Shown: piece by piece, positions 19,297 to 52,642 of the stretch | Layout of the letters: each line of letters opens with the position of its first letter | Position numbering within the stretch: position 1 is the stretch's first letter | Source: Gammaproteobacteria bacterium | GTDB lineage: Bacteria; Pseudomonadota; Gammaproteobacteria; CBDDKY01 | Assembly (NCBI GenBank): GCA_965230455.1 | Contig: CBDDKY010000003.1 | Location: 45,626 to 109,625, forward strand | Direction: 5' to 3' | Length of the DNA stretch: 64,000 nucleotides | Notes under the pieces: model-generated | What the model saw: the letters and a program-made list of their open reading frames with translations, nothing else | What the model was told of the DNA's origin: nothing | Database searches by the model: none | Translations under genes and position numbers: made by a program

Positions 19297-20433
19297 CTAA
19301 CTTAGCACTGCTTTAAGCAAGGGATCTAAAACACGATACTGCTGTTGCTCATCAATAAAGGCATAGTCCTTAAGCAGCAAAGCTTCTAACGAACGATGAA
19401 TGCTTGTACTAGACATTTGCCACTGTAATGCCCAATGCTTGCTGGTAGGCTCTTTGACTTTTTGAGCTTTTGCTAAATTAATGAGTAGCTTGCGTTGATT
19501 AGTCGTTAATAAGCTAATTTCTTGTTCAACACGCGATTGATTTTCCAAAGTATAAATTTGCCATGTCTCTTCTACATCTTTGCGCGTGGGCAGCTGTTCT
19601 TGTTGCCATAACAAAGAACAAAGCTTATTTAAAAAATAACTATGGTTTTCGGTTAATGTTAAAACCTCATGGATAACAGCCTCATCTAGCGCACATTGCC
19701 AATGCACCTGCGCTGCTTTATTGATATAGTTTTGATAATGCTCATTACTAATCCGTTGTATCGTCATTTGATCACAAAGATTATAAAAAGGGCGGTTTCT
19801 ATCATTAAACATAGACTCTATCAAATGGCGCTGACTACCAGAAAACACATAGCGAATAGCTTTACTCTTTTGTACCGCTTCACGAATAGCCGCTTCAATA
19901 CTATGGTTAGGAGCCACTTCTGCTAAAACTTGAAACTCATCTAAAAAAATAATTGCTTGCTGCTTTTTATTAACGAGAAAATTATCAATACGCTCCAACG
20001 CTGCTAATATAATATCAACAGGGCGTCTTTCTTGCCGGTTAAATTCTACCGAGAGCCCCATTTTTTCTATGGCAAATTTTAACTGAAAACCACTAAAAAA
20101 TTCTGTTGCAATTTTAATAAGCTTTTCAGGCGTTGACTCCATACTTGCTAATAACTGGCCAACACCATTTAGCACAAAATGAGCAATATCTTCTTCATTG
20201 AGCGCCTTGTATAAATCAATATGTACAAAAGGCCACGATAATTTCCTCATAGCCTGCAAAGCCAAACTGGTTTTACCATAGCGACGTGGCGATACTAAAA
20301 GGGTGGATATATTATGTTCTAGATTATAATGAAGCCTCTTTAGCTCCACCGTTCTATTGCAAAAGGCTGCTCCCTCCGCCAAAGAAACAGGAAAATAATT
20401 TATCAAACTATCACCTCTATGATGAACACGCAA
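19297..20433 (-). CDS. AAA+ ATPase of the archaeal-ATPase family (PF01637-like, with a DUF234-type C-terminal region). Paralog 1.
   Basis: Walker A 'RRYGKTSL' and Walker B-like 'IIFLDEFQ'. About 40% identical to the 21425-22537 product across the full length. The ORF-track start is a TTG codon. Confidence 0.75.
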   Translation of the reverse strand: MRVHHRGDSLINYFPVSLAEGAAFCNRTVELKRLHYNLEHNISTLLVSPRRYGKTSLALQAMRKLSWPFVHIDLYKALNEEDIAHFVLNGVGQLLASMESTPEKLIKIATEFFSGFQLKFAIEKMGLSVEFNRQERRPVDIILAALERIDNFLVNKKQQAIIFLDEFQVLAEVAPNHSIEAAIREAVQKSKAIRYVFSGSQRHLIESMFNDRNRPFYNLCDQMTIQRISNEHYQNYINKAAQVHWQCALDEAVIHEVLTLTENHSYFLNKLCSLLWQQEQLPTRKDVEETWQIYTLENQSRVEQEISLLTTNQRKLLINLAKAQKVKEPTSKHWALQWQMSSTSIHRSLEALLLKDYAFIDEQQQYRVLDPLLKAVLS

Positions 20434-20446
20434 ATTGTAATACGCA

Positions 20447-20476
20447 AATTGTAATACGCAAATTGCGTATTGTCAA
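20447..20476 (-). promoter_or_regulatory. Near-consensus sigma70 promoter (TTGACA, 17 bp, TACAAT on the minus strand). The spacer is a 17-bp perfect palindrome 'atacgcaaattgcgtat', a likely operator for ATPase paralog 1.
   Basis: On the minus strand 'ttgacaatacgcaatttgcgtattacaat' lies directly upstream of the gene start. It is followed by two direct repeats of 'ttgcgtattacaat'. Confidence 0.5.
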
Positions 20477-20588
20477 AAATACAAGCAACAGCAGCTTAGC
20501 AAACAAATGTTAATACTTACTGATCCCCTCATTTACATTTAAGGAACAAACAGCGAGGAATAAATAAATTTGATATAAGCGGTTGATT

Positions 20589-20743
20589 TTATTGAGAAAG
20601 AAGATCATCATACAGGCTGAACAAACCGAGTGTTTTAGCAACCTCTTTTTGGCATCCCATGGCATCAATAGTGATGATACAACCCTTTATTTCTAGCAGT
20701 TCTAGTAGTTTTGGTATCGCTGTCAGCCATTCCCGCGGACTCA
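20589..20743 (-). pseudogene. ISAs1-family transposase remnant, a 51-codon internal fragment.
   Basis: The minus-strand translation '[40 protein letters not shown]' matches 'ITAIPKLLDLLALEGCIVSIDAMGTQKKIAKKI' of the intact ISAs1 transposase at 40809-41960. Confidence 0.7.
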
Positions 20744-21047
20744 TTAACCCCTTGAAATTAGTGGCCTAGACAGGCATGCTTACTTTATTTTTCGCAACAA
20801 TGAGGATACGTTGCTCATGAAAATCAAGATGCGCAAAAGATTATCAGCCCCAGGCCTGCTTGAGGCTACCAAAACCCGATTTGCTCGTAGTGACAAAATC
20901 GCTTGGTAATTAGACCGACAGTTTGCCTTGGTAATGACAATAGTTCACGGGGTAAAAAAAGATTTAACCTAAAATAGAATATGTTAGGGAACAAAAAAAT
21001 CCTGCCGTGTCGCCGTATTGTGGATAATTTCTTCAGCATACATTGAT

Positions 21048-21327
21048 CCTAAAATCAGCAGTTAAATCACGTTTTTGGCGATAACATCTTGACTTATCTA
21101 AGAAAACAAAAAAAGTCTACATCACCAATAAGGGTGAACCAGAACGATGTGCCAGTGGCACATCGCAGTCTGGTGAGCGCGAGGACAGGATGTCCGAGCT
21201 GGGACTGATAAGAACAAGGGCCGTGCGACAGGATGTCTGTGGCAGTCATTGCTTATTTCCCTTTTTAGTTTCCTTGTCTAAATCAATCTGTTACACCAAA
21301 AAAGCGCGATTTACTGCTGATTTTAGG
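21048..21327 (-). repeat. MITE-like element family R2, copy 1, about 280 bp, with about 24-bp terminal inverted repeats 'cctaaaatcagcagtNaaatc'.
   Basis: Its reverse complement aligns nearly base-for-base with 38991-39320. It contains the perfect internal palindrome 'gatgtgccagtggcacatc'. Confidence 0.75.
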
Positions 21328-21424
21328 TTGATGGCACAAGACCATTGACTGTGAGCATCGCCAAACACACAACTGACGTTCAAAAGCCTAGCGCCCAACC
21401 ATTCACAGGATATTAACCATAGAA

Positions 21425-22537
21425 TCAAATAGATACAGATAGAATAGTTTTAAACAGTGGATCCAAGACTTGATAAGAGCCTTCTTTGTTGCAATAGACA
21501 TAGTCTCGTTGTTCTAATACCGTTAAAGATTGACTAATCGTTGCCCCTGACATTTGAGTCAACGTTTGAAACTCTCGCCCCCTTGGAGCAGCAGTCCCCC
21601 CGCTGCGTGCTAAAAACACCAATAGCTTGCGTTGGTTTTGGCTCAATAAATCCAGCTCACCAGAAACCTGAGAACGCTCTTCGATAGCATAGGCTCGCCA
21701 CAAACCTCTAACTGCTTCTGCTGTTCTATCGTCTAATTTCCACAGCCTAGAACATAATAAATTAACATAATAAGGGTGCCTTTCTGTACAATTAAAAATT
21801 TCTATCAACACCTCGGGTTCTAAAGGAACACCCCACGTTTCCACTGCTGCACGCTGTATATAAGCCTGATAATGCGCTTCGCTGATACGCTCTAAACCAA
21901 TGCGATCGCACAATTTATAAAAAGGACGATTTTTATCGCTAAATATTAATTGCAATAAATGCCTATTACTACCCGAAAAAATAAATGACATACTCTTCGA
22001 TGCCTGAGCTACTTGTCGTATCACACTCTCAATGGCACAATTTTCAGTTACCTCATAAATACGCTGAAATTCATCAAAAAATAAAATTAATTTTTGTTGG
22101 TATTTTTTACTTAAAATCTCAACACGCTGCAATATTTGCAGAATATTCGTGCTGGAATCCTGGCTGGGTTTATTAATTTCTACACTTAACCCTAGACCAT
22201 CAAAAGCCAACCTTATACTCAGCCCTGCAAACAAGTCCGCGGCTAATTTTAAAGCCTTTTTAGGACCTTTCTCTATACGAGTGATCAACTCACCAACGCC
22301 TTTTAAGATAATTTTTTCAATATCCGTTTCTGTAATTGCTGATAAAAAGTCAAAATGCGCATAATGAAATTGAACACTATTAATAGCATTAATGGCAAGA
22401 CTGGTTTTACCATAACGCCTTGTAGCGATTAATAGCGTTGGCCTAGATTCTTTCAAATTAAAGATTAATGCTTGTAGTTCTGCCTGGCGGTTGCAAAAAT
22501 TATCATCTACCGCCAGCGCTAAAGGAAAATAATCCAT
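21425..22537 (-). CDS. AAA+ ATPase of the archaeal-ATPase family (PF01637-like). Paralog 2.
   Basis: 'MDYFPLALAVDDNFCNRQAELQALIFNLKESRPTLLIATRRYGKTSL' parallels paralog 1. Walker B 'ILFFDEFQ'. Confidence 0.75.
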   Translation of the reverse strand: MDYFPLALAVDDNFCNRQAELQALIFNLKESRPTLLIATRRYGKTSLAINAINSVQFHYAHFDFLSAITETDIEKIILKGVGELITRIEKGPKKALKLAADLFAGLSIRLAFDGLGLSVEINKPSQDSSTNILQILQRVEILSKKYQQKLILFFDEFQRIYEVTENCAIESVIRQVAQASKSMSFIFSGSNRHLLQLIFSDKNRPFYKLCDRIGLERISEAHYQAYIQRAAVETWGVPLEPEVLIEIFNCTERHPYYVNLLCSRLWKLDDRTAEAVRGLWRAYAIEERSQVSGELDLLSQNQRKLLVFLARSGGTAAPRGREFQTLTQMSGATISQSLTVLEQRDYVYCNKEGSYQVLDPLFKTILSVSI

Positions 22538-22548
22538 GCTACATCCTG

Positions 22549-22591
22549 GGAAAATGTCATATTATATGCGTCATATTATATGACATTTTCC
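22549..22591 (-). promoter_or_regulatory. 43-bp near-perfect palindrome immediately upstream of ATPase paralog 2, a candidate operator. It is repeated in degenerate form at 22636-22676.
   Basis: 'ggaaaatgtcatattatatgcgtcatattatatgacattttcc'. The second copy is 'gaaaatgtcatcttgtatgcgtcatattttatgac'. Confidence 0.45.
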
Positions 22592-22748
22592 AAAGAAGAG
22601 CAACAAACTATAACTCATTGAAAAATAAATTAAAATTATACAATCAGAAAATGTCATCTTGTATGCGTCATATTTTATGACTATTTGAAAGCGAAAAATG
22701 GGATTAGAGAATAGAAGATACAGGATTGACGCCACAACTATCTGTCTT

Positions 22749-24920
22749 CTATCCTCCCGCAAAAGCCACAGCCGCCACCAGCCATTTAATGCCATGCTGA
22801 GCAAAATTGACTTGTACTCGGGCTTGTTCGCCTTTGCCTTCTATTTGCAAAATCAATCCTTCACCAAACTTCTTGTGCTGAACGGTTTGCCCCACATAGT
22901 AACCCGAAGCATGAGCATCTGAAGCAGAGGCTTTATAAGCATAGGGGGTTTTGCGGCCCCCCTTCACAATACGCGTTTGCATGCGTACGCTTTGTAACAG
23001 TTCTTCAGGGATTTCAGACAAAAAGCGCGAGGGGCGCTGGTATTGATCAGTACCATAGATATAGCGCTTCTCTGCATGGGATACATATAATTTCTCCATG
23101 GCGCGCGTAATACCCACATAACAAAGGCGCCGCTCTTCTTCCATACGGCCCGGGTCGTGCATAGATAGTTTATGGGGAAAAATGCCTTCTTCTAGCCCTA
23201 ATAAAAATACCACGGGAAATTCTAGACCTTTGGCGGCATGCAGCGTCATTAACTGTACGCAATGGGTCGTATCACTTTGCCCTTCACCGGCTTCCAAAGC
23301 GCTGTAGGTTAAAAAAGCCTGCAATGAACTATTGGAGCCCGTATCCTCTGACTCCACATTAAAACGCCCGGCAGCGGTCACTAATTCCGCTAAGTTTTCC
23401 TCGCGCACTTGGGCTTTGGTGGGGCCTTCTTTGAGATAGTGCGACATTAAATGACTTTCTTCTACGACTTTTTTAACGGTATCTTTTAATAAGGTGTTTT
23501 CGCAGCTTTCTGTCAACGTCGTAATAAGTTGCAAGAAACTTTCTAAAGCATTAGCTGCACGCGCGGCTAACTCATGCTGTTCTAAGAGGAATAAAGTCGC
23601 TTGCCATAACGATAAGGCTTCTGAACGCGCCGTATCACGCAACAGTTCTAATGTGCGCTGACCAATTCCCCTGGCTGGCACATTGACAACGCGTTCGAAT
23701 GCACTGTCGTCTTCTCGATTGCAAACCAAACGCAAATAAGCCAAGGCATCTTTAATTTCAGCGCGTTCAAAAAATCGCATGCCGCCGTAAACACGATAAG
23801 GCACACTAGCCTGTAATAACGCTTCCTCAAGAATGCGTGACTGCGCATTAGAGCGATATAATAAAGCCATATGCTCGTAGGGAGTCCCTTCAGCTGCACG
23901 GGCTTGAATTTGACTCACCACATAGCTGGTCTCATCCATATCGCTATAAGCGCTGTATAAGGTAATAGGCTCGCCGGCTTTATCTTCAGTCCAGAGGGAT
24001 TTTCCTAATCTATCACCGTTATTTTCAATCAAGGCATTGGCGGCTTGTAGAATGGTCTCTGTGGAACGATAATTTTGCTCCAAACGCACCATCTTTGCGC
24101 CTTTAAAATCTGTTTGGAAGCGATGGATATTATCCATTTGTGCGCCACGCCAGCCATAAATGGACTGGTCATCATCACCCACTATCATGATGTGATTATT
24201 CTTACCCACTAACAAACGCAACCACGCATATTGTAATTTATTGGTGTCCTGGAACTCATCCACCAAAACATGTTTAAACCGTTGTTGATAGTGCGCTAAA
24301 ATCTCCGGATTATTGAGCAATAATTCATGGGCACGCAGCAGTAATTCAGCAAAATCCAGCAAACCCGCCCGTTCACAGGCTTCTTGATAATCTCGATAGA
24401 CCGAACGCATGACCTCTTTATGGTGATCATATTCTGGCCCAATGCTTTCAGGACGCAAACCTTCGTCTTTTTTGCCGTTAATATAACCTTGCACCTGACG
24501 CGGCGGCCAGCGTTTTTCGTCAATGTCACGCGCTTTTAAAATACGCTTAATAAGGCGCAGTTGGTCGTCAGAATCGATAATTTGGAAGTTTTCTAATAAC
24601 TTAGCCGCTTCCCAATGCGTACGCAGCAAGCGGTGGGCAATATGGTGAAAGGTGCCTACCCACATGCCATGCACTGACATGCCCATAAGCTGCTGAATAC
24701 GGCCTCGCATTTCTGCCGCGGCTTTATTGGTAAAGGTCACCGCTAATAAACTAAAAGGTGAACAGTGTTCTTGCTCCAAGAGCCAAGCAATACGATGCAC
24801 CAACACACGGGTCTTACCACTGCCAGCGCCAGCTAAAACCAGAGCATGCATGGCAGGCAAGGCCACAGCTTCACGCTGGGCCTCATTCAGTTCAGCTAAT
24901 AAGTGATGGGAATTATCCAT
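22749..24920 (-). CDS. uvrD: DNA helicase II.
   Basis: 723 aa. N-terminal 'LLAELNEAQREAV...LVLAGAGSGKTRVL' (helicase motif I), 'VLVDEFQDTN', 'IMIVGDDDQSIYGWRGA', 'YRSN.QSR' and a C-terminal UvrD-specific tail. Confidence 0.93.
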   Translation of the reverse strand: MDNSHHLLAELNEAQREAVALPAMHALVLAGAGSGKTRVLVHRIAWLLEQEHCSPFSLLAVTFTNKAAAEMRGRIQQLMGMSVHGMWVGTFHHIAHRLLRTHWEAAKLLENFQIIDSDDQLRLIKRILKARDIDEKRWPPRQVQGYINGKKDEGLRPESIGPEYDHHKEVMRSVYRDYQEACERAGLLDFAELLLRAHELLLNNPEILAHYQQRFKHVLVDEFQDTNKLQYAWLRLLVGKNNHIMIVGDDDQSIYGWRGAQMDNIHRFQTDFKGAKMVRLEQNYRSTETILQAANALIENNGDRLGKSLWTEDKAGEPITLYSAYSDMDETSYVVSQIQARAAEGTPYEHMALLYRSNAQSRILEEALLQASVPYRVYGGMRFFERAEIKDALAYLRLVCNREDDSAFERVVNVPARGIGQRTLELLRDTARSEALSLWQATLFLLEQHELAARAANALESFLQLITTLTESCENTLLKDTVKKVVEESHLMSHYLKEGPTKAQVREENLAELVTAAGRFNVESEDTGSNSSLQAFLTYSALEAGEGQSDTTHCVQLMTLHAAKGLEFPVVFLLGLEEGIFPHKLSMHDPGRMEEERRLCYVGITRAMEKLYVSHAEKRYIYGTDQYQRPSRFLSEIPEELLQSVRMQTRIVKGGRKTPYAYKASASDAHASGYYVGQTVQHKKFGEGLILQIEGKGEQARVQVNFAQHGIKWLVAAVAFAGG

Positions 24921-27261: not shown

Positions 27262-30200
27262 GTGTCATCAATTACCCAGCTCTGAGTAATAAACTAACGG
27301 GTACGCCCGAAAAAATACACTCTCTCTCAGTAGCTTGCAGCCCCTCTTACTCGTCTTTGCGAGCGGCAGCGAAGCAATCCAGGGTGGTAGGCTGACTTGT
27401 TCTATTTTTTCAGTGAACTAGAAACAGGTATGCCCTCTCTTGAACAAGGCAAGGCGTTATGTATTCAGAATGCACAGCTTCGTGGTTTAAACTTTCCTAG
27501 GATTTAATTTGGATTGCCGCGCTGCCGCTCGCAACGACGAATAAGGTGGTGCGTAACAAGTTGATGTAGAATGGTTTTTTTAGGGTGTGCTTGGGCGTTC
27601 ATCATTGCCGCTCGCAAGGACGAATAAGGTGGCGCGTAACAAGTTGGTGTAGAATGATTTTTTTAGGATGTACTTGAGCGTTCATCATTCCTTGTAAAAG
27701 CAAACCGTATTGAGTAATAAACTAACGAGCACACCATAAAAGAAGCATTTCCTTTCAATAGCTTACGGGCCCTCTTACTCGTCTTTGCGAGCGGCAGCGA
27801 AGCAATCCAGGGTGGTAGGCTGACTTGTTCTATTTTTTCAGTGAACTAGAAACAGGTATGCCCTCTCTTGAACAAGGCAAGGCGTTATGTATTCAGAATG
27901 CACAGCTTCGTGGTTTAAACTTTCCTAGGATTTAATTTGGATTGCCGCGCTGCCGCTCGCAACGACGAATAAGGTGGTGCGTAACAAATTGATGTAGAAT
28001 GGTTTTTTTAGGGTGTGCTTGGGCGTTCATCATTCCTTGTAAAAGCAAACCGTACTGAGTAATAAACTAACGGGTACACCATAAAAGAAGCATTTCCTTT
28101 CAATGGCTTACATGCTCTCTTACTCGTCTTTGCGAGCGGCAGCGAAGCAATCCAGGGTGGTAGGCTGACTTGTTTTATTTTTTCAGTGAACTAGAAACAG
28201 GTATGCCCTCTCTTGAACAAGGCAAGGCGTTATGTATTCAGAATGCACAGCTTCGTGGTTTAAACTTTCCTAGGATTTAATTTGGATTGCCGCGCTGCCG
28301 CTCGCAACGACGAATAAGGTGGTGCGTAACAAATTGATGTAGAATGGTTTTTTTAGGGTGTGCTTGAGCGTTCATCATTTCTTGTGAAAGCAAACCGTAC
28401 TGAGTCATAAACTAACGGGTACACCATAAAAGAAGCATTTCCTTTCAATGGCTTACATGCTCTCTTACTCGTCTTTGCGAGCGGCAGCGAAGCAATCCAG
28501 GGTGGTAGGCTGACTTGTTCTATTTTTTCAGTGAACTAGAAACAGGTATGCCCTCTCTTGAACAAGGCAAGGCGTTATGTATTCAGAATGCACAGCTTCG
28601 TGGTTTAAACTTTCCTAGGATTTAATTTGGATTGCCGCGCTGCCGCTCGCAACGACGACTAAGGTGGTGCGTAACAAGTTGGTGTAGAATGATTTTTTAG
28701 GGTGTGCTTGGGCGTTCATCGTTTCTTGTGAAAACAAACCGTACTGAGTAATAAACTAACGGGTACACCATAAAAGAAGTATTGCCTTTCAATGACTTAC
28801 GTGCTCTCTTACTCGTCCTTGCGAGCGGCAGCGCGGCAATCCAGGGTGGCAAGCTGACGTGTCCTTTTTTTTGATGCCTGACCCGTGGGTATGCCCTTCT
28901 TGAACAAGACAGGGCATTAGGCGCTCAGTGCGCACGGCTTTGTGGTTGACACTTTCCTACCGTTCAACTTGGGTCGCGTCGCTGCCGCTCGCAACGACGA
29001 ATAAGGTGGTGCGTAACAAATTGATGTAGAATGGTTTTTTTAGGGTGTGCTTGAGCGTTCATCATTCCTTGTGAAAGCAAATCGTACTGAGTAATAAACT
29101 AACGGGTACACCATAAAAGAAGCATTTCCTTTCAATGGCTTACATGCTCTCTTACTCGTCTTTGCGAGCGGCAGCGAAGCAATCCAGGGTGGTAGGCTGA
29201 CTTATTCTATTTTTTCAGTGAACTAGAAACAGGTATGCCCTCTCTTGAACAAGGCAAGGCGCTATGTGTGCAGAGTCCATAGCTTCGTGGTTTAAACTTT
29301 CCTAGGATTTAATTTGGATTGCTTCGCTGCCGCTCGCAACGACGAATAAGGTGGTGCGTAACAAGTTGGTGTAGAATGGTTTTTTTAGGGTGTGCTTGGG
29401 CGTTCATCATTCCTTGTAAAAGCAAACCGTACTGAGTAATAAACTAACGGGTACACCATAAAAGAAGCATTTCCTTTCAATGGCTTACATGCTCTCTTAC
29501 TCGTCTTTGCGAGCGGCAGCGAAGCAATCCAGGGCGGTAGGCTGACTTGTTCTATTTTTTCAGTGAACTAGAAACAGGTATGCCCTCTCTTGAACAAGGC
29601 AAGGCGTTATGTATTCAGAATGCACAGCTTCGTGGTTTAAACTTTCCTAGGATTTAATTTGGATTGCTTCGCTGCCGCTCGCAACGACGACTAAGGTGGT
29701 GCGTAACAAGTTGGTGTAGAATGATTTTTTAGGGTGTGCTTGGGCGTTCATCATTCCTTGTGAAAGCAAATCGTACTGAGTAATAAACTAACGGGTACAC
29801 CATAAAAGAAGCATTTCCTTTCAATGGCTTACATGCTCTCTTACTCGTCTTTGCGAGCGGCAGCGAAGCAATCCAGGGTGGTAGGCTGACTTGTTCTATT
29901 TTTTCAGTGAACTAGAAACAGGTATGCCCTCTCTTGAACAAGGCAAGGCGTTATGTATTCAGAATGCACAGCTTCGTGGTTTAAACTTTCCTAGGATTTA
30001 ATTTGGATTGCCGCGCTGCCGCTCGCAACGACGAATAAGGTGGTGCGTAACAAGTTGATGTAGAATGGTTTTTTTAGGGTGTGCTTGAGCGTTCATCATT
30101 TCTTGTGAAAGCAAACCGTACTGAGTCATAAACTAACGAGCACACCATAAAAGAAGCATTTCCTTTCAATAGCTTACGGGCCCTCTTACTCGTCTTTGCG

Positions 30201-30578
30201 AGCGGCAGCGAAGCAATCCAGGGTGGTAGGCTGACTTGTTCTATTTTTTCAGTGAACTAGAAACAGGTATGCCCTCTCTTGAACAAGGCAAGGCGTTATG
30301 TATTCAGAATGCACAGCTTCGTGGTTTAAACTTTCCTAGGATTTAATTTGGATTGCCGCGCTGCCGCTCGCAAGGACGAATAAGGTGGTGCGTAACAAGT
30401 TGATGTAGAATGGTTTTTTTAGGGTGTGCTTGAGCGTTCATCATTCTTTGTGAAAGCAAACAGTATTGAGTAATAAACTAACGGGTACGCCCGAAAAAAT
30501 ACACTCTCTCTCAGTAGCTTGCAGCCCCTCTTACTCGTCGTTGCGAGCGGCAGCGAAGCAATCCAGGGTGGTAGGCTC
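27262..30578 (-). repeat. Tandem array B of the same ~345-bp unit, about 10 units, in inverted orientation relative to arrays A and C.
   Basis: It is the reverse complement of the array-A unit, for example 'ggattgccgcgctgccgctcgcaacgacgaataaggtggtgcgtaacaagttg'. It starts about 30 bp after the priA stop and ends about 115 bp before the GNAT gene. Confidence 0.9.
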
Positions 30579-38990: not shown

Positions 38991-39320
38991 CCTAAAATCG
39001 GCAGTCAATCGCGTCTTTTTGGTGTAACAGATTGATTTAGCCTAACATCAGCAGTCAATCGCGCTTTTTTGGTGTAACAGATTGATTTAGACAAGGAAAC
39101 TAAAAAGGGAAATAAGCAATGACTGCCACAGACATCCTGTCGCAAGGCTCTTGTTCTTATCAGTCCCAGCTCGGACATCCTGTCCTCGCGCTCACCAGAC
39201 TGCGATGTGCCACTGGCACATCGTTCTGGTTCACCCTTATTGGTGATGGAGACTTTTTTTGCTTTCTTAGATGAATCCAGATGTTATCGCCAAAAACGTG
39301 ATTTAACTGCTGATTTTAGG
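38991..39320 (+). repeat. MITE-like element family R2, copy 2, with a 50-bp tandem duplication of its left end.
   Basis: The reverse complement of 21048-21327. 'cctaaaatcggcagtcaatcgcg..gatttag' occurs twice in succession. Confidence 0.75.
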
Positions 39321-39324
39321 TTGA

Positions 39325-39452
39325 AGGAACGAGGGACAAATTTGTGTTTATTTGAGGCAGCATAGTGAACTATGTCACGAAAATACACGCAAATTTGCAC
39401 CCGTTTTATTCAAATTGCAGCGTGAAAATGAATTGTCAACAGACCCTAATAA
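39325..39452 (-). repeat. Repeat family R4, full copy of about 130 bp, upstream of the AEC transporter gene.
   Basis: The reverse complement of 52504-52642. It includes 'gtgaaaatgaattgtcaacag'. Confidence 0.7.
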
Positions 39453-42825: not shown

Positions 42826-43256
42826 AGTCCCCGCAGTTGAAAGTTCGGGAAATTATTTGTTAATGTGATAACATAAGTTTTATATTTTAGCGCCTGGATG
42901 TTAGTCAGATTTGGACAATTTTTACTGAAAAAACGAGGATTTTAGCTATTCTAAATGACAAGTTTTTTCAGTAAAAATTGTTCAAAGATGGCTGGCAGAC
43001 AGACAGCTAAAACCCGAGGTTTCAACTGCGGGGACTATATACCCTGAGGGACCGACACAAAAAATTATTATAAAACAATCAGTTAAAGATCTATCAAATC
43101 AGGTGACTTAACAAGCTGAATTTAATAGTTAATCATATGTTACATAATCAGCTTTTTTATCCTTATTTTTAAGTAGCAAACGATAAGGGTTAAATCATAT
43201 AATCGTTACTCTTTGTTTTTTAAGGTTATTTTGTGTCGGTCCCTCAGACTATATAG
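42826..43256. repeat. Cluster of hairpin and MITE remnants inside the IS graveyard.
   Basis: 22-bp inverted pair 'tccccgcagttgaaagttcggg' (about 42826) and 'cccgaggtttcaactgcgggga' (about 43010). A perfect 19-bp hairpin 'caatttttactgaaaaaac ... gttttttcagtaaaaattg'. A third copy of 'ctgagggaccgacacaaaa' at about 43045 pairs with 43228-43250 to delimit a MITE of about 210 bp. Confidence 0.55.
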
Positions 43257-44373
43257 CAATTTCACTTCAAGATGCGAACACAGGTTTTTCTAAGATTTGA
43301 AAATTATCTGTTATTCTTGAACGCAATAATCTTTTCTTTTTGCCAATATGCCTAAAAAAATGTTTGATAGCCTCGGTAAAATCAGAAAATTTTTCATAAT
43401 ATTTATTGTAGGTAACTTGCTCATGCATAATCTTCCACAGTCGTTCTACTGGATTTAGATTGGGTGAATATGGCGGTAAATAATGTATGACTATCCCCAG
43501 CTCTTTAGCAAAATCCTGTACTAATCCACTACAATGGTAACCTACATTATCCCAAATAATGTGCACTTTATAATTTCCAGGGTGATGTTTACGCAGCCGA
43601 AATAAAAAGGATTGTATGCTTTCTTCATTGATCTTGTCGGATTGCTCATAAACAACTTTGTGATTAGTTAAGCAGACTCCGCCCATAAAGTTTAAGCGGT
43701 ATTGTCGAGCTGTTGTAGCAATCGGTTTACGCTCGCCTTTCATTATCCAACCATAAGCTAGCCTTGTTTGATGTTGTGGATGAACACTATCAACAAAGTA
43801 AATAGGCTCTTTTCTACCCGCTTTTTTCTTTAGTTTCTCATAATAGGTAATAAAATCTATTTGCTTAGTTTTATCTGCTTTAGCAGGAACTGCATTTGGT
43901 TTTTTATAACGAAAACCGTGCTGGTGTAACCACTTCGTCATGCCACTGATGGTGTATTTTTTATTAAAAGTTTTGCGTACATAAGCACAAATATCTTTTA
44001 CATAGCGGTAAGTGTATTTTTTTAAATGTGATAAAAGTAACTGCGACTGCTCTTGGTTAAGTTGACTATTGCTGCCGCCATTTTCTGGCTTTAATTTAAA
44101 TGTTTTAAAATAATCAGAAATATGCCGACGAATGGTTTCATCATCTAATAATAAAAGACGAGCAACTTCAGAGTAACTGTAGCCGTCATCGTAAGCTAAT
44201 ACAGCCTTGATTCGGTCGCAAGTCCGCTTGTCGCGCTCTTTTTTATGGCGCCGTTGCAGCTTTTCACGTTCTTGTGTTGTTAGCTTTCTATTCATAACGG
44301 TATTTGATCATATCCTGATGATTTATGCAACTTTTTTAAGTCAAATTCGCATCTTCAATGGCGAGTGCTATAT
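43252..44373 (-). mobile_element. IS630-family IS element, copy 1 (about 1.12 kb). The target is a TA within 'tatata'.
   Basis: The ends 'tagcaatttcacttcaagatgcg' and '...cgcatcttcaatggcgagtgcta' form imperfect terminal inverted repeats flanked by TA. Copy 2 at 61978-63099 is more than 99% identical. Confidence 0.85.
43267..44295 (-). CDS. IS630-family (Tc1/mariner-like) transposase.
   Basis: 342 aa with an N-terminal HTH, DDE/D core 'IYFVDSVHPQ' and 'IHYLPPYSPNLNPVERLW'. Confidence 0.9.
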   Translation of the reverse strand: MNRKLTTQEREKLQRRHKKERDKRTCDRIKAVLAYDDGYSYSEVARLLLLDDETIRRHISDYFKTFKLKPENGGSNSQLNQEQSQLLLSHLKKYTYRYVKDICAYVRKTFNKKYTISGMTKWLHQHGFRYKKPNAVPAKADKTKQIDFITYYEKLKKKAGRKEPIYFVDSVHPQHQTRLAYGWIMKGERKPIATTARQYRLNFMGGVCLTNHKVVYEQSDKINEESIQSFLFRLRKHHPGNYKVHIIWDNVGYHCSGLVQDFAKELGIVIHYLPPYSPNLNPVERLWKIMHEQVTYNKYYEKFSDFTEAIKHFFRHIGKKKRLLRSRITDNFQILEKPVFAS

Positions 44374-46481: not shown

Positions 46482-48959
46482 ATGGAATCCACCTATTCCC
46501 CCGCCATCCTTGAAGAAGCTGTACAGAAAAAATGGCTTAGCGAACAAACCTTTGCTGTCAAAGAAGACTTAACCAAAGAGAAATTCTTTTGTCTGGCGAT
46601 GTTTCCCTACCCCAGCGGTAAGTTACACATGGGCCATGTGCGCAATTATTCCATTGCCGACGTCATCGCTCGCTATCAGCGCATGTTAGGGAAAAATGTG
46701 CTGCATCCCATGGGATGGGATGCCTTCGGGCTGCCGGCTGAAAATGCTGCACGCGCCCATAACACCCAACCTGCTAAGTGGACCTATGCGAATATTGAAC
46801 AAATGCGTGAACAATTTAAGCGCCTGGGCTTTAGTTATGATTGGGATAGAGAGATAGCCACCTGTAAGCCGGACTATTATCGCTGGGAACAATGGCTTTT
46901 CACCCGACTGTTTGAAAAAGGCTTGGTCTACAAAAAAAATGCCATGGTGAATTGGGATCCGGTGGATGAAACTGTCCTTGCCAACGAGCAGGTGATTGAT
47001 GGACGTGGCTGGCGCTCTGGCGCGTTGGTAGAGAGGCGAGAAATTCCGCAATGGTTTATTAAAATTACCGCTTATGCCGACGAACTTTTACAAGATTTGC
47101 AACACTTAGAAGAATGGCCCGAACAAGTCCGTTCTATGCAAAAGCATTGGATTGGCCGCTCAGAAGGGGTAGAGATTACTTTTGAGGTTGAAGGTCTACA
47201 GACACCCCTGCAGGTTTATACCACCCGCCCAGACACCCTCATGGGCGTTACTTATTTAGCCTTGGCACCACAGCATACCTTAGTGCAACAGCAGCTAGAA
47301 GCCCATCCTGAGCTGTTACCCTTTATAGAAGAATGCCAGCATATCCAAGTATCAGAAGCCGCCATGGCCACACTGACCAAAAAAGGCATGGACATTGGGC
47401 TGCGCGCTATTCACCCTATCACAGGTGAAACTATCCCCATTTGGACGGCTAATTTTGTTTTGTTGGAATACGGTTCAGGTGCGGTTATGTCGGTGCCAGG
47501 ACATGATGCGCGGGACTTTGAATTTGCTACCGCTTATGGCTTACCTATCCAGCAAGTCATTGAACCTAACCATGGCGAGCCGGTGGATTTAACCCAACAA
47601 GCTTTCACCGGCCAGGGTGTTTTAATCAATTCCGGCCAGTGGGATGGACTGCCTTCTGAAAAAGCCTGCCATACTATTATTAAAGCCTTGGAAGCAATCA
47701 ACAAAGGCCAAGGCCAGGTGCATTATCGCCTGCGCGACTGGGGAATTTCCCGGCAGCGCTATTGGGGAACACCCGTTCCTGTGATCCATTGCATGCAATG
47801 TGGCCCACAAGCGGTACCCCCGCACGATTTACCGGTGGTATTACCTGAAGACGTAGATTTATCGGGCAATGATTCGCCTTTAAAGCATTGGGACGATTTT
47901 GTAAACGTCCCCTGTCCTCATTGCCAACAACCAGCAAAGCGCGATACAGACACTTTTGATACCTTTATGGAGTCTTCTTGGTATTATGCGCGCTTTGCCA
48001 GCTTTGATCAGCACTCTGCCATGTTGGATGACAGGGCCAAGTATTGGACGCCGGTGGATCATTACGTGGGAGGTATTGAACATGCTGTTATGCATCTGCT
48101 CTACGCACGTTTTTTCCATAAATTATTACGCGATGAAGGCTTGCTTAACAGTGATGAACCTTTTAAGCGCCTGTTAACCCAAGGCATGGTACTAAAAGAT
48201 GGCACGAAAATGTCTAAATCCAAGGGCAATGTGGTGGACCCACAAACACTCATCGACCAATACGGTGCTGATACCGTGCGTCTTTTTGTGTTATTTGCCG
48301 CGCCCCCTGAGCAGTCCTTAGAGTGGTCTGACAGCGGCGTCGAAGGTGCTTACCGTTTTTTAAAACGTCTGTGGATTTTTGCTGTAGAGCATGGGGAAGC
48401 CATTAAATCACTTAATGCCCTACAATCACCTACAGATTGGGAACGTATCCCTGCTGAACTTCGCACGGTTCGCCAAACCATGCATCAAACCTTACAGCAA
48501 GCCAATGGTGATATTGCCAAGTCTCAACTGAATACCGTTGTCTCTGCAGCAATGAAACTATTAAATTTATTACAAAAGCTACCACAAGACACGCAACGTC
48601 CTACCCAATGCTTGCGCCAAGAGGGCCTAAGCCTGTTGCTGCGCCTTTTAGCGCCCATCACACCACATATTACGCAAACCCTGTGGCAAGACTTAGACTT
48701 TGGTACACTCATCATGGATGCACCTTGGCCTAAGGTGGATGCGAAAGCCTTACAAAGCGATAGCATGGCGCTTATGATACAAATTAATGGTAAGGTCCGC
48801 GGTAAAATGCATGTACCCTGTGATGCTGACGAAACCACCATTCAACAATTAGCCTTGGCTCACGAAAAAGTAAAAACGCAGTTACAAGACAAAGCCTGCC
48901 GAAAAATTATTGTCGTACCTAAGCGACTGGTCAATGTGGTGCTGGGAGACAAAACCTAA
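46482..48959 (+). CDS. leuS: Leucyl-tRNA synthetase.
   Basis: 'HMGHVRNY' (HIGH), 'KMSKS', 'GWDAFGLPAENAA' and the CP1 editing domain. The start is placed at the internal Met ('MESTYSPAILEE...'). Confidence 0.96.
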   Translation: MESTYSPAILEEAVQKKWLSEQTFAVKEDLTKEKFFCLAMFPYPSGKLHMGHVRNYSIADVIARYQRMLGKNVLHPMGWDAFGLPAENAARAHNTQPAKWTYANIEQMREQFKRLGFSYDWDREIATCKPDYYRWEQWLFTRLFEKGLVYKKNAMVNWDPVDETVLANEQVIDGRGWRSGALVERREIPQWFIKITAYADELLQDLQHLEEWPEQVRSMQKHWIGRSEGVEITFEVEGLQTPLQVYTTRPDTLMGVTYLALAPQHTLVQQQLEAHPELLPFIEECQHIQVSEAAMATLTKKGMDIGLRAIHPITGETIPIWTANFVLLEYGSGAVMSVPGHDARDFEFATAYGLPIQQVIEPNHGEPVDLTQQAFTGQGVLINSGQWDGLPSEKACHTIIKALEAINKGQGQVHYRLRDWGISRQRYWGTPVPVIHCMQCGPQAVPPHDLPVVLPEDVDLSGNDSPLKHWDDFVNVPCPHCQQPAKRDTDTFDTFMESSWYYARFASFDQHSAMLDDRAKYWTPVDHYVGGIEHAVMHLLYARFFHKLLRDEGLLNSDEPFKRLLTQGMVLKDGTKMSKSKGNVVDPQTLIDQYGADTVRLFVLFAAPPEQSLEWSDSGVEGAYRFLKRLWIFAVEHGEAIKSLNALQSPTDWERIPAELRTVRQTMHQTLQQANGDIAKSQLNTVVSAAMKLLNLLQKLPQDTQRPTQCLRQEGLSLLLRLLAPITPHITQTLWQDLDFGTLIMDAPWPKVDAKALQSDSMALMIQINGKVRGKMHVPCDADETTIQQLALAHEKVKTQLQDKACRKIIVVPKRLVNVVLGDKT

Positions 48960-52458: not shown

Positions 52459-52503
52459 GAGGTTTTCCTCGTCTAAAGTAAAATAAGCCCTAAACACCAG
52501 GGG

Positions 52504-52642
52504 CTGTTGACAATTCATTTTCACGCTGCAATTTGAATAAAACGGGTGCGAATTTGCGTGTATTTTCGTTACTATAGTTCACTATGCCGCCTCAAATAAA
52601 CACAAATTTGTCCCTCGCAGTAATTCCCGCTGGGAATTGCTG
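52504..52642 (+). repeat. Repeat family R4 copy (about 115 bp) fused to a REP-like palindrome 'cagtaattcccgctgggaattgctg' at 52618-52642.
   Basis: Identical stretches occur at 19142-19188 and, in reverse complement, at 39325-39452. The palindrome family also occurs at 12543, 35464 and 35853. Confidence 0.7.

Follow-up and report, generated by a model that had tools for sequence, protein, structure and literature searches.

Phased dyad arrays overlap the promoters of solitary AAA+ ATPase genes and suggest autoregulation through a predicted winged helix

In a 64,000-nucleotide stretch of contig CBDDKY010000003.1 from a gammaproteobacterium, hereafter called the window, two minus-strand genes (gene 1 and gene 2) encode paralogous ATPases that are predicted to join an AAA+ domain to a C-terminal winged helix, and each is preceded by its own set of short inverted and direct repeats. 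We find that dyad operators which overlap or abut the gene's own promoter are a trait of the protein family, and that a phased array of 14–15-bp units describes such an operator better than a single palindrome does. Each gene forms a module of its own, self-contained and monocistronic, and on balance we consider it probable that these solitary AAA+ winged-helix proteins assemble into oligomers at their own promoters and repress them, the specificities of the two paralogs not overlapping. The features on which the argument rests are the following.

19297-20406, minus strand: gene 1, predicted AAA+ winged-helix ATPase of 369 aa read from TTG 20406 (open reading frame, and orthologues of 369-373 aa covering 100% of this short form)
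20411-20418, minus strand: Shine-Dalgarno-like AGAGGTGA, ending 4 nt before TTG 20406 (sequence reading)
20426-20470, minus strand: putative operator array of gene 1, with the dyad ATACGCAAtTTGCGTAT (20454-20470) and two TTGCGT(A/G)T half-sites (20440-20447 and 20426-20433)
20448-20476, minus strand: sigma-70-type core promoter of gene 1, TTGACA (20471-20476), 17 nt, TACAAT (20448-20453) (11/12 match)
21425-22537, minus strand: gene 2, predicted AAA+ winged-helix ATPase of 370 aa
22550-22592, minus strand: proximal putative operator of gene 2, with the dyad GTCATATaATATGAC (22570-22584), a second unit 14 nt away (22556-22569) and the inverted flanks GGAAAATG / CATTTTCC
22647-22686, minus strand: distal putative operator copy of gene 2, with the dyad GTCATAAAATATGAC (22667-22681) (88% identical to the proximal one)

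An earlier, sequence-only reading of this DNA had described a near-consensus promoter for gene 1 with a perfectly palindromic 17-nt spacer, followed by 14-bp direct repeats, and both descriptions hold. The sigma-70 match, 11 of 12 positions, is the best one between 19100 and 22900, its spacer is exactly ATACGCAAtTTGCGTAT, and the additional right half-sites lie exactly 14 and 28 nt downstream of the dyad, which gives TTGACA-[ATACGCAAtTTGCGTAT]-TACAAT-[TTGCGTAT]-TACAAT-[TTGCGTGT] on the coding strand. The 14-nt unit occurs three times at 20425-20466 and is the sole tandem repeat with a match of at least 21/24 at periods of 12–17 nt in the 64 kb. Perfect 8+8 palindromes are not rare in the window (18, compared with 4.3 in shuffles), and our argument therefore rests on position, phasing and conservation. 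The start codon of gene 1 is most likely TTG 20406 rather than the TTG 20433 of the mechanically called open reading frame (ORF; 19297-20433, 378 aa), because AGAGGTGA precedes it, it aligns with the MDYFP N-terminus of gene 2, and it yields the 369-aa length of the orthologues. The upstream TTG is itself part of the third operator repeat.

Gene 2 carries a different element, as the same reading had claimed, with TCATA/TATGA dyads where gene 1 has TACGCA/TGCGTA. What had been called a 43-bp palindrome is present and ends 12 nt before the ATG, but it is an imperfect inverted repeat (25-nt arms, 88% complementary) that is better read as two 14-bp-phased dyads, GTCATATaATATGAC and a half-degenerate second unit 14 nt from it. 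The element does recur further upstream, the 40 nt at 22550-22589 being repeated at 22647-22686 with 88% identity, 97 nt start to start; this distal copy lies 63 nt downstream of the uvrD stop codon and just 5' of one of three perfect TATAAT hexamers on the coding strand of gene 2 (22635-22640), the other two (22561-22566 and 22575-22580) being inside the proximal element.

These elements are conserved in orthologues. Six gene-1-type promoters, from genes whose proteins are 50–63% identical, align over the functional block only, and their flanks do not. Invariant in all six are the −35 TTG, the dyad TACGCA + GCGT within the 17-nt spacer, the −10 TA, and a TGCGTA placed 14 nt after the right arm of the dyad, whose form is TACGCA-N3-TGCGTA. 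In gene-2-type promoters, a −35-like TTG stands ahead of (G)TCATA-N3-TATGA(C) dyads that are phased at 14 nt, with three dyads in succession at one locus (L034). The closest orthologue of gene 2 (L114, 64% identity) has GTCATAAAATATGAC, identical to the distal dyad of the window, and the dyad is also conserved at a locus whose protein is 54% identical to gene 2 (L001).

The pattern extends across the family. We compared 28 genome and 80 metagenome loci with relatives at 24–64% identity, drawn from Legionellales, Coxiellaceae, Campylobacterota, Bacteroidota, Nitrospirota, Acidobacteriota, Omnitrophota, Aquificota and other taxa; counts are over 104 loci, start codons were set through alignment to the query, and the non-coding upstream regions of other ORFs in the same loci served as controls (n = 93 for palindromes, n = 92 for repeats). 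Nearly all family genes have a palindrome 10–50 nt upstream of the start. The best-palindrome score in the 80 nt upstream averages 8.6, compared with 5.3 in the controls (n = 93; Mann–Whitney p 1e-15), and a score of at least 10 is found in 30% of loci, as against 2% of controls and 0.6% of shuffles. Direct repeats that match at 9/10 positions or better are present with an offset of 14 nt in 31/104 loci and of 15 nt in 18/104, which makes 49/104 phased overall; the controls give 1/92 and 0/92, respectively, and shuffles about 0.5 per 104. Eight loci show a harmonic at 28 nt and 6 loci one at 30 nt, and all other offsets are at background.

When 120 nt upstream are considered, 53 loci carry arrays of 2–4 units each, the unit usually being an 11–13-bp dyad such as TGCGTAACGCA, TATGCAGCATA, GGTATCATACC or TCATAnnnTATGA. 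Measured from the start codon, the median array runs from −56 to −24. Where a sigma-70-like match was detected (36 loci), the array overlaps this match in 20 and starts at most 10 nt downstream of its −10 in about 7 others. The sequence-only reading had named beforehand, as its own test, whether palindromes are conserved upstream of orthologues, and they are, both in the alignments described above and as an array or strong palindrome within 100 nt upstream of the gene in 78/104 loci (75%).

The two genes had been introduced as minus-strand paralogs with the Walker A motif RRYGKTSL, and the ORFs bear this out: their products share 41% identity in an end-to-end alignment of 368 aa (E 2e-110), with PRRYGKTSL in gene 1, TRRYGKTSL in gene 2 and the Walker B sequence DEFQ in both. 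Among family members, G43 and K44 of Walker A and D155/E156 of Walker B are invariant (96/96), and T45 is kept in 90%. A profile search of 1.84 billion representatives returned 904 clusters (at 50% identity) with E ≤ 1e-30, a number that rises to 2,974 when E ≤ 1e-10 is allowed, and each of the best 150 representatives aligns as a single stretch, the full-length ones having about 370–400 aa. The family is nearly absent from phages (2/50,697 records) and occurs in 19 plasmid or chromid records, and we rejected a phage or plasmid origin on these counts. Full-text literature searches retrieved no account of the function of the family or of its operator arrays.

The former label, PF01637/DUF234 type, is half right. 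A relation to the archaeal PF01637 group is supported by the fold and by E values of about 1e-6: gene 1 matches PF01637 with 29.6 bits (E 7.5e-7) and gene 2 with 26.6 bits (E 6.4e-6), both under the 33.2-bit gathering score, 40/40 aligned relatives match it at E ≤ 0.1 (best 1.4e-12), and precomputed Pfam annotation lists it for most homologues. Gene 1 also matches AAA_14 above the cut-off (E 2e-9). The structural match to the PF01637 family is strong, and the three-domain fold of SSO1545 and PAB2304 is shared. Structures of PF01637-type ATPases have been solved since 2006, and to our knowledge no function is known for them. The DUF234 part of the label is wrong, because DUF234 (PF03008) is a PD-(D/E)XK nuclease-type domain found C-terminally in COG1672 proteins (PMC3424549), no PF03008 match at E ≤ 0.1 occurs in either window protein or in 40/40 relatives, and 370 aa is too short to accommodate one.

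For gene 2, AlphaFold2 with a 40-sequence alignment yielded a model (predicted local distance difference test, pLDDT, 90.3) that gives the predicted plan as an AAA+ ATPase domain, then a helical lid and, at the C-terminus, a MarR-like winged helix in roughly 370 aa. After the SSO1545 group, its structural neighbours are Orc1/Cdc6 on origin DNA and the filaments of TnsC and MuB. The C-terminal winged helix that had been proposed from the sequence is supported twice: in the model, residues 300-357 have the topology H-H-H-strand-strand (helices 300-312, 321-327 and 331-343, strands 347-349 and 355-357), and a profile of the C-terminal 80 aa from 41 members matches winged helices of the MarR family, with ZitR at E 2.6e-4 and AdcR, SlyA, SarA and a PhiH1 repressor-like protein at up to 1e-2. 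Single-sequence searches of the PDB with the window proteins gave nothing useful, and the match to the NCBIfam ORC1 model reaches 17 bits where 311 are required. Neither window protein has an effector or sensor-repeat domain, their 370 aa leaving no extra domain, and PADLOC-DB v2 returned no significant match (best PDC-S01, E 0.0026, and mad8, E 0.01). C15, C210, C262 and H254 of gene 2 are invariant or nearly so in the 40 closest relatives; we dropped them as a metal or redox site of the family, since they are present in only 40–62 of 96 sequences of the wider family, and they may be a metal or redox feature specific to the clade.

Which protein reads the arrays can be approached through their neighbourhoods. 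The sequence-only reading had suggested surveying homologous loci for recurring partner genes, and none is conserved: in an all-against-all clustering of about 970 flanking ORFs, the largest cluster consists of generic glycosyltransferases in 8 loci, on which ground we rejected an operon partner, and no helicase, integrase or transposase gene is conserved among these ORFs. Downstream, the neighbouring gene points the same way as the ATPase gene at 36 loci and converges on it at 39, and the upstream gap has a median of 140 nt. Because no partner is conserved and the downstream orientation is mixed, a trans factor encoded nearby is unlikely, and the ATPase gene is left as the only constant companion of the array. 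The arrays accompany this gene across unrelated phyla and neighbourhoods, and their sequence varies with the protein subfamily. Association, position and fold thus suggest that the ATPase binds its own array.

Covariation between recognition helix and operator is no more than suggestive of such binding. Within strata of equal protein identity, more similar recognition helices go with more similar operators; in the 30–40% stratum, operators match at 9/10 positions in 6%, 11% and 26% of pairs as helix similarity rises. Arg336 in the recognition helix goes with GCG-containing operators (10/18 versus 5/53, p 1.5e-4; 5/10 versus 2/33 after redundancy reduction, p 0.004). A test of covariation with whole 90-nt upstream regions gave no signal, owing to AT-rich noise. 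Further copies of the operators were sought as well: none in the 64-kb window is convincing, and in the rest of the ±6-kb loci the count of operator-like words, 201 where 147 are expected, is close to chance, the excess being extra sites just upstream of the same gene.

On the account that we favour, the winged helix would recognise a short dyad, of the form TACGCA-N3-TGCGTA in gene 1 and (G)TCATA-N3-TATGA(C) in gene 2, at sites that comprise 2–4 units every 14–15 bp over the −35/−10/+1 region of the gene itself. Binding would nucleate at the best dyad, and further subunits would join cooperatively on the phased weaker sites, probably in an ATP-dependent manner because the ATPase site is strictly conserved and DnaA and Orc1/Cdc6 behave in this way. 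RNA polymerase would be occluded as a consequence, and the resulting negative autoregulation would hold each protein at a constant level, in two loops that would not interfere with each other because the paralogs read different dyads. With a distal site 97 nt away from the proximal one, gene 2 could also make use of looping or of a second promoter. We infer all three central elements, namely the gene's own product as binder, repression through binding and ATP-driven oligomerisation, from the sequences.

Several observations weigh against this account. The covariation of helix and operator is not specific, as a control helix does equally well in a partial Mantel test (r 0.11, p 0.004), and the Arg336 link, the top one of 89 tested, loses its significance on correction. 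Under the thresholds used, neither an array nor a strong palindrome is present in about a quarter of the loci. The promoter of gene 2 is unassigned, there being no good −35 for any of its three TATAAT hexamers. The operator scan spanned ±6 kb per locus and the 64-kb window, and a wider regulon is possible. Sequence support for the winged helix is modest (profile E about 1e-4), and single-sequence Pfam matches to it are weak. Finally, the equivalent domain of the STAND relatives is structural rather than DNA-binding, and contacts the nucleotide pocket.

This last point and the unspecific covariation would equally suit a purely structural winged helix, with the arrays bound by another host factor or acting as DNA or RNA structure. 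We hold this to be very unlikely, given that the arrays follow the gene through unrelated phyla and surroundings and change in sequence with the subfamily of the protein. A role as an RNA hairpin is excluded for gene 1 and its orthologues because their dyad lies in an untranscribed promoter spacer, and direct repeats phased at 14–15 bp are no hairpin feature. That palindromes and repeats are simply chance features of AT-rich intergenic DNA might be argued from the 18 perfect 8+8 palindromes of the window and from sigma-70-like matches, which are not enriched in the region (6 versus 11 expected); the family-wide enrichment over matched controls and shuffles, together with column-by-column conservation in orthologues, refutes a chance origin and leaves it a practically negligible probability.

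Two further alternatives leave room for autorepression and assign the proteins another role. The array could serve mainly as a loading or nucleation site for a DNA transaction, such as an Orc1/Cdc6-like or iteron-like origin, a silencing or partition-like filament or target marking of the TnsC/MuB type, autorepression being a by-product. The structural neighbours would fit this, as would single insertions between the housekeeping pairs glyS|glyQ, purL|purM and OEP|RND-MFP, and phased direct repeats with an inverted unit recall the iterons and origin recognition boxes that lie beside initiator genes. We nevertheless consider it unlikely: the arrays have merely 2–4 units and sit exactly on −35/−10/+1, no AT-rich unwinding element and no conserved helicase, integrase or transposase gene is found nearby, no flanking repeats mark the boundary of an element, and phages and plasmids hardly ever carry the family. 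Just as unlikely, in our estimate, is that the proteins are minimal STAND-like or Orc-like sensors in conflict and defence or another stress response, which autorepression would keep at a low fixed dose and whose relevant ligand would be, for example, foreign DNA or protein. Their solitary occurrence, patchy distribution across phyla, several divergent paralogs per genome and varied insertion sites would agree with such a role, and there are weak PADLOC matches to the candidate PDC-S01 (E 0.003); those matches are far from significant, however, no effector or sensor domain is present and each of the best 150 representatives matches as one continuous stretch, and it is housekeeping genes, not defence islands, that surround these genes. 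A sensor function would in any case be compatible with autoregulation, to which it would merely add.

Beyond self-repression by the array-bound ATPase, the genes may represent an undescribed, widely distributed class of AAA+ winged-helix modules that occur singly and would be the cousins, in bacteria, of Orc1/Cdc6 and the STAND core. Each module would build an ATP-dependent filament on an iteron-like array of 14–15-bp units beside its own gene, and array and protein specificity would diversify together, so that one genome could hold several non-interfering copies, either as selfish self-maintaining units between housekeeping genes or as sequence-specific DNA sensors in conflict. We regard this wider picture as speculative and rather unlikely.

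The surroundings of family members offer some observations of their own. A solitary ATPase gene stands between normally paired genes at three loci, glyS|glyQ (antisense; L110:3724-7986), purL|purM (L113:2637-7265) and OEP|RND-MFP (L112:4295-8409), where it looks like a single-gene insertion. Boundaries like those of transposons were rejected: between the 250 nt upstream and the 200 nt downstream, the longest shared direct and inverted words average 8.4 and 8.3 nt, no longer than in mismatched controls (7.6 and 7.7 nt). Two loci are exceptions, L009 (gene at 5953), where a 21-nt direct repeat flanks the gene, and L016 (gene at 2586), where the 19-nt operator palindrome ATTATGTTTAAAACATAAT is also found downstream of the gene. 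Orphan ATPases of other kinds occur near two members, an AAA_14+DUF4143 protein of 443 aa (L113:1260-2591) and a 221-aa AAA_14 protein or fragment (L112:11574-12239), and it seems that solitary AAA-type ATPase genes of several kinds gather in these genomes.

In the window, the gene order on the coding strand is uvrD (22749-24920), gene 2, gene 1 and a gene for 4-hydroxyphenylpyruvate dioxygenase (HPPD; 17974-19080). The two ATPase genes do adjoin here and are in this sense tandem, as had been claimed; tandem arrangement is not a feature of the system. The nearest relatives of each paralog, 62–64% identical, are located elsewhere, and a second family copy within 6 kb is found in only 3 of about 100 loci, for which reasons we take gene 1 and gene 2 to be old paralogs whose adjacency is incidental. 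One relative has a gene-1-type and a gene-2-type copy about 22 kb apart. A perfect palindrome, ATAATCCCATGGGATTAT, lies at 19041-19058, 22–39 nt inside the 5' end of the HPPD coding sequence, and a related palindrome containing CCCATGGG is found at 46704-46722. Just downstream of the HPPD gene is a 1,698-aa ORF (12643-17739, minus strand) with no Pfam match at E ≤ 0.01, which may encode an effector-like protein, given the Legionellales-like relatives of the genome. The closest relatives are metagenome-assembled genomes of Legionellales and Coxiellaceae. An Rfam scan of the whole window found no RNA family.

The 1-kb spacer between the two ATPase genes contains two scars.

20628-20741, minus strand: remnant of an ISAs1-family transposase gene, about 38 codons (tblastn against plasmids)
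21048-21327, no strand assigned: 280-bp element resembling a miniature inverted-repeat transposable element (MITE), with terminal inverted repeats of roughly 68 nt (self-blastn)

Both had been named in the sequence-only reading, and both are real. The transposase remnant is a fragment only, which shares 68% identity (38 aa, E 4e-10) with genes that carry the annotation ISAs1 family transposase, and its 51-aa ORF has no Pfam match. The second element is short and non-coding, has terminal inverted repeats (21048-21113 and 21262-21327, 79% complementary) and more than one copy, which are the criteria of a MITE; the second copy, at 39041-39320, is inverted and 96.8% identical. The label R2 for the MITE is that reading's own, and the insertion hotspot that it proposed for the pair is an inference from these two scars only. 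A 49-nt repeat at 19140-19188, in the gap between gene 1 and the HPPD gene, returns at 39401-39449 and 52499-52545 with 98–100% identity and is another small dispersed repeat family; one of its copies adjoins the second MITE copy, and 39330-39447 and 52499-52617 are 96% identical. Larger repeats elsewhere in the window include very large tandem arrays at 1-1798, 27282-30577 and 59466-61973 (period about 345 bp, units 80–95% identical, both strands), which are probably giant repeat-protein genes, and a 1,124-bp duplication at 43250-44373 and 61976-63099 (99.8% identity), which may be an insertion sequence or a recently duplicated gene.

For one branch of the PF01637-type ATPases, about 900 clusters, our analysis provides a testable predicted activity, sequence-specific binding at the phased array of the gene's own promoter, with predicted DNA sites for about 100 members and, in the window, two paralogs that form a natural pair and differ in predicted specificity. 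If ATP does control spreading from a strong dyad to weak sites, these proteins would be a minimal model for the assembly of Orc1/Cdc6- and DnaA-type proteins on DNA, and they would be a source of compact, mutually non-interfering repressors.

Among characterised structures, the window proteins are most like archaeal SSO1545 (PDB 2fna) and PAB2304 (PDB 2qen), which have about 350–370 aa and the same succession of AAA+ domain, lid and C-terminal winged helix; they differ from these in being bacterial, at 15–18% identity and under the Pfam cut-off. The match names a fold and not a mechanism. The COG1672 ATPases (PF01637 plus DUF234) share a related N-terminal ATPase module, whereas the window proteins and 40/40 relatives are without the C-terminal DUF234. 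Archaeal Orc1/Cdc6 is a more distant sharer of the three-domain plan; it binds repeated boxes that contain a short dyad, lie beside its own gene and support ATP-controlled assembly. By contrast, the sites described here fall on the core promoter at a 14–15-bp phase, with no unwinding element or helicase partner evident, and the genes occupy ordinary chromosomal sites of bacteria that use DnaA.

The closest analogy for how the module would work is the autoregulation of DnaA, an AAA+ protein with a C-terminal DNA-binding domain that forms an ATP-dependent oligomer on strong and weak sites and represses its own promoter, although its domain IV is no winged helix, its boxes are 9-mers and it has a second job at oriC. 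MarR-family autorepressors such as ZitR/AdcR, SlyA and SarA have the winged helix in common with the predicted proteins, and their dyads overlap the −35/−10 of their own genes; they are dimers of about 150-aa chains with a helical dimer interface and no ATPase, whereas here the winged helix would be the tail of an AAA+ module and the sites are phased arrays of 2–4 units. Iteron-binding plasmid Rep proteins, too, combine direct repeats with an inverted repeat at the initiator's own promoter, and autorepress. Rep proteins, however, have two winged helices and no ATPase, their iterons are 17–22 bp long, more numerous and located at the origin, and the ATPase family described here is rare on plasmids. 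The module would thus be of a known kind, either an AAA+ protein whose DNA-binding tail represses its own promoter, as in DnaA, or a winged-helix autorepressor; what appears to be undescribed is the combination of a PF01637-fold ATPase, a MarR-like winged helix, dyad arrays phased at 14–15 bp and solitary genes of diversified specificity.

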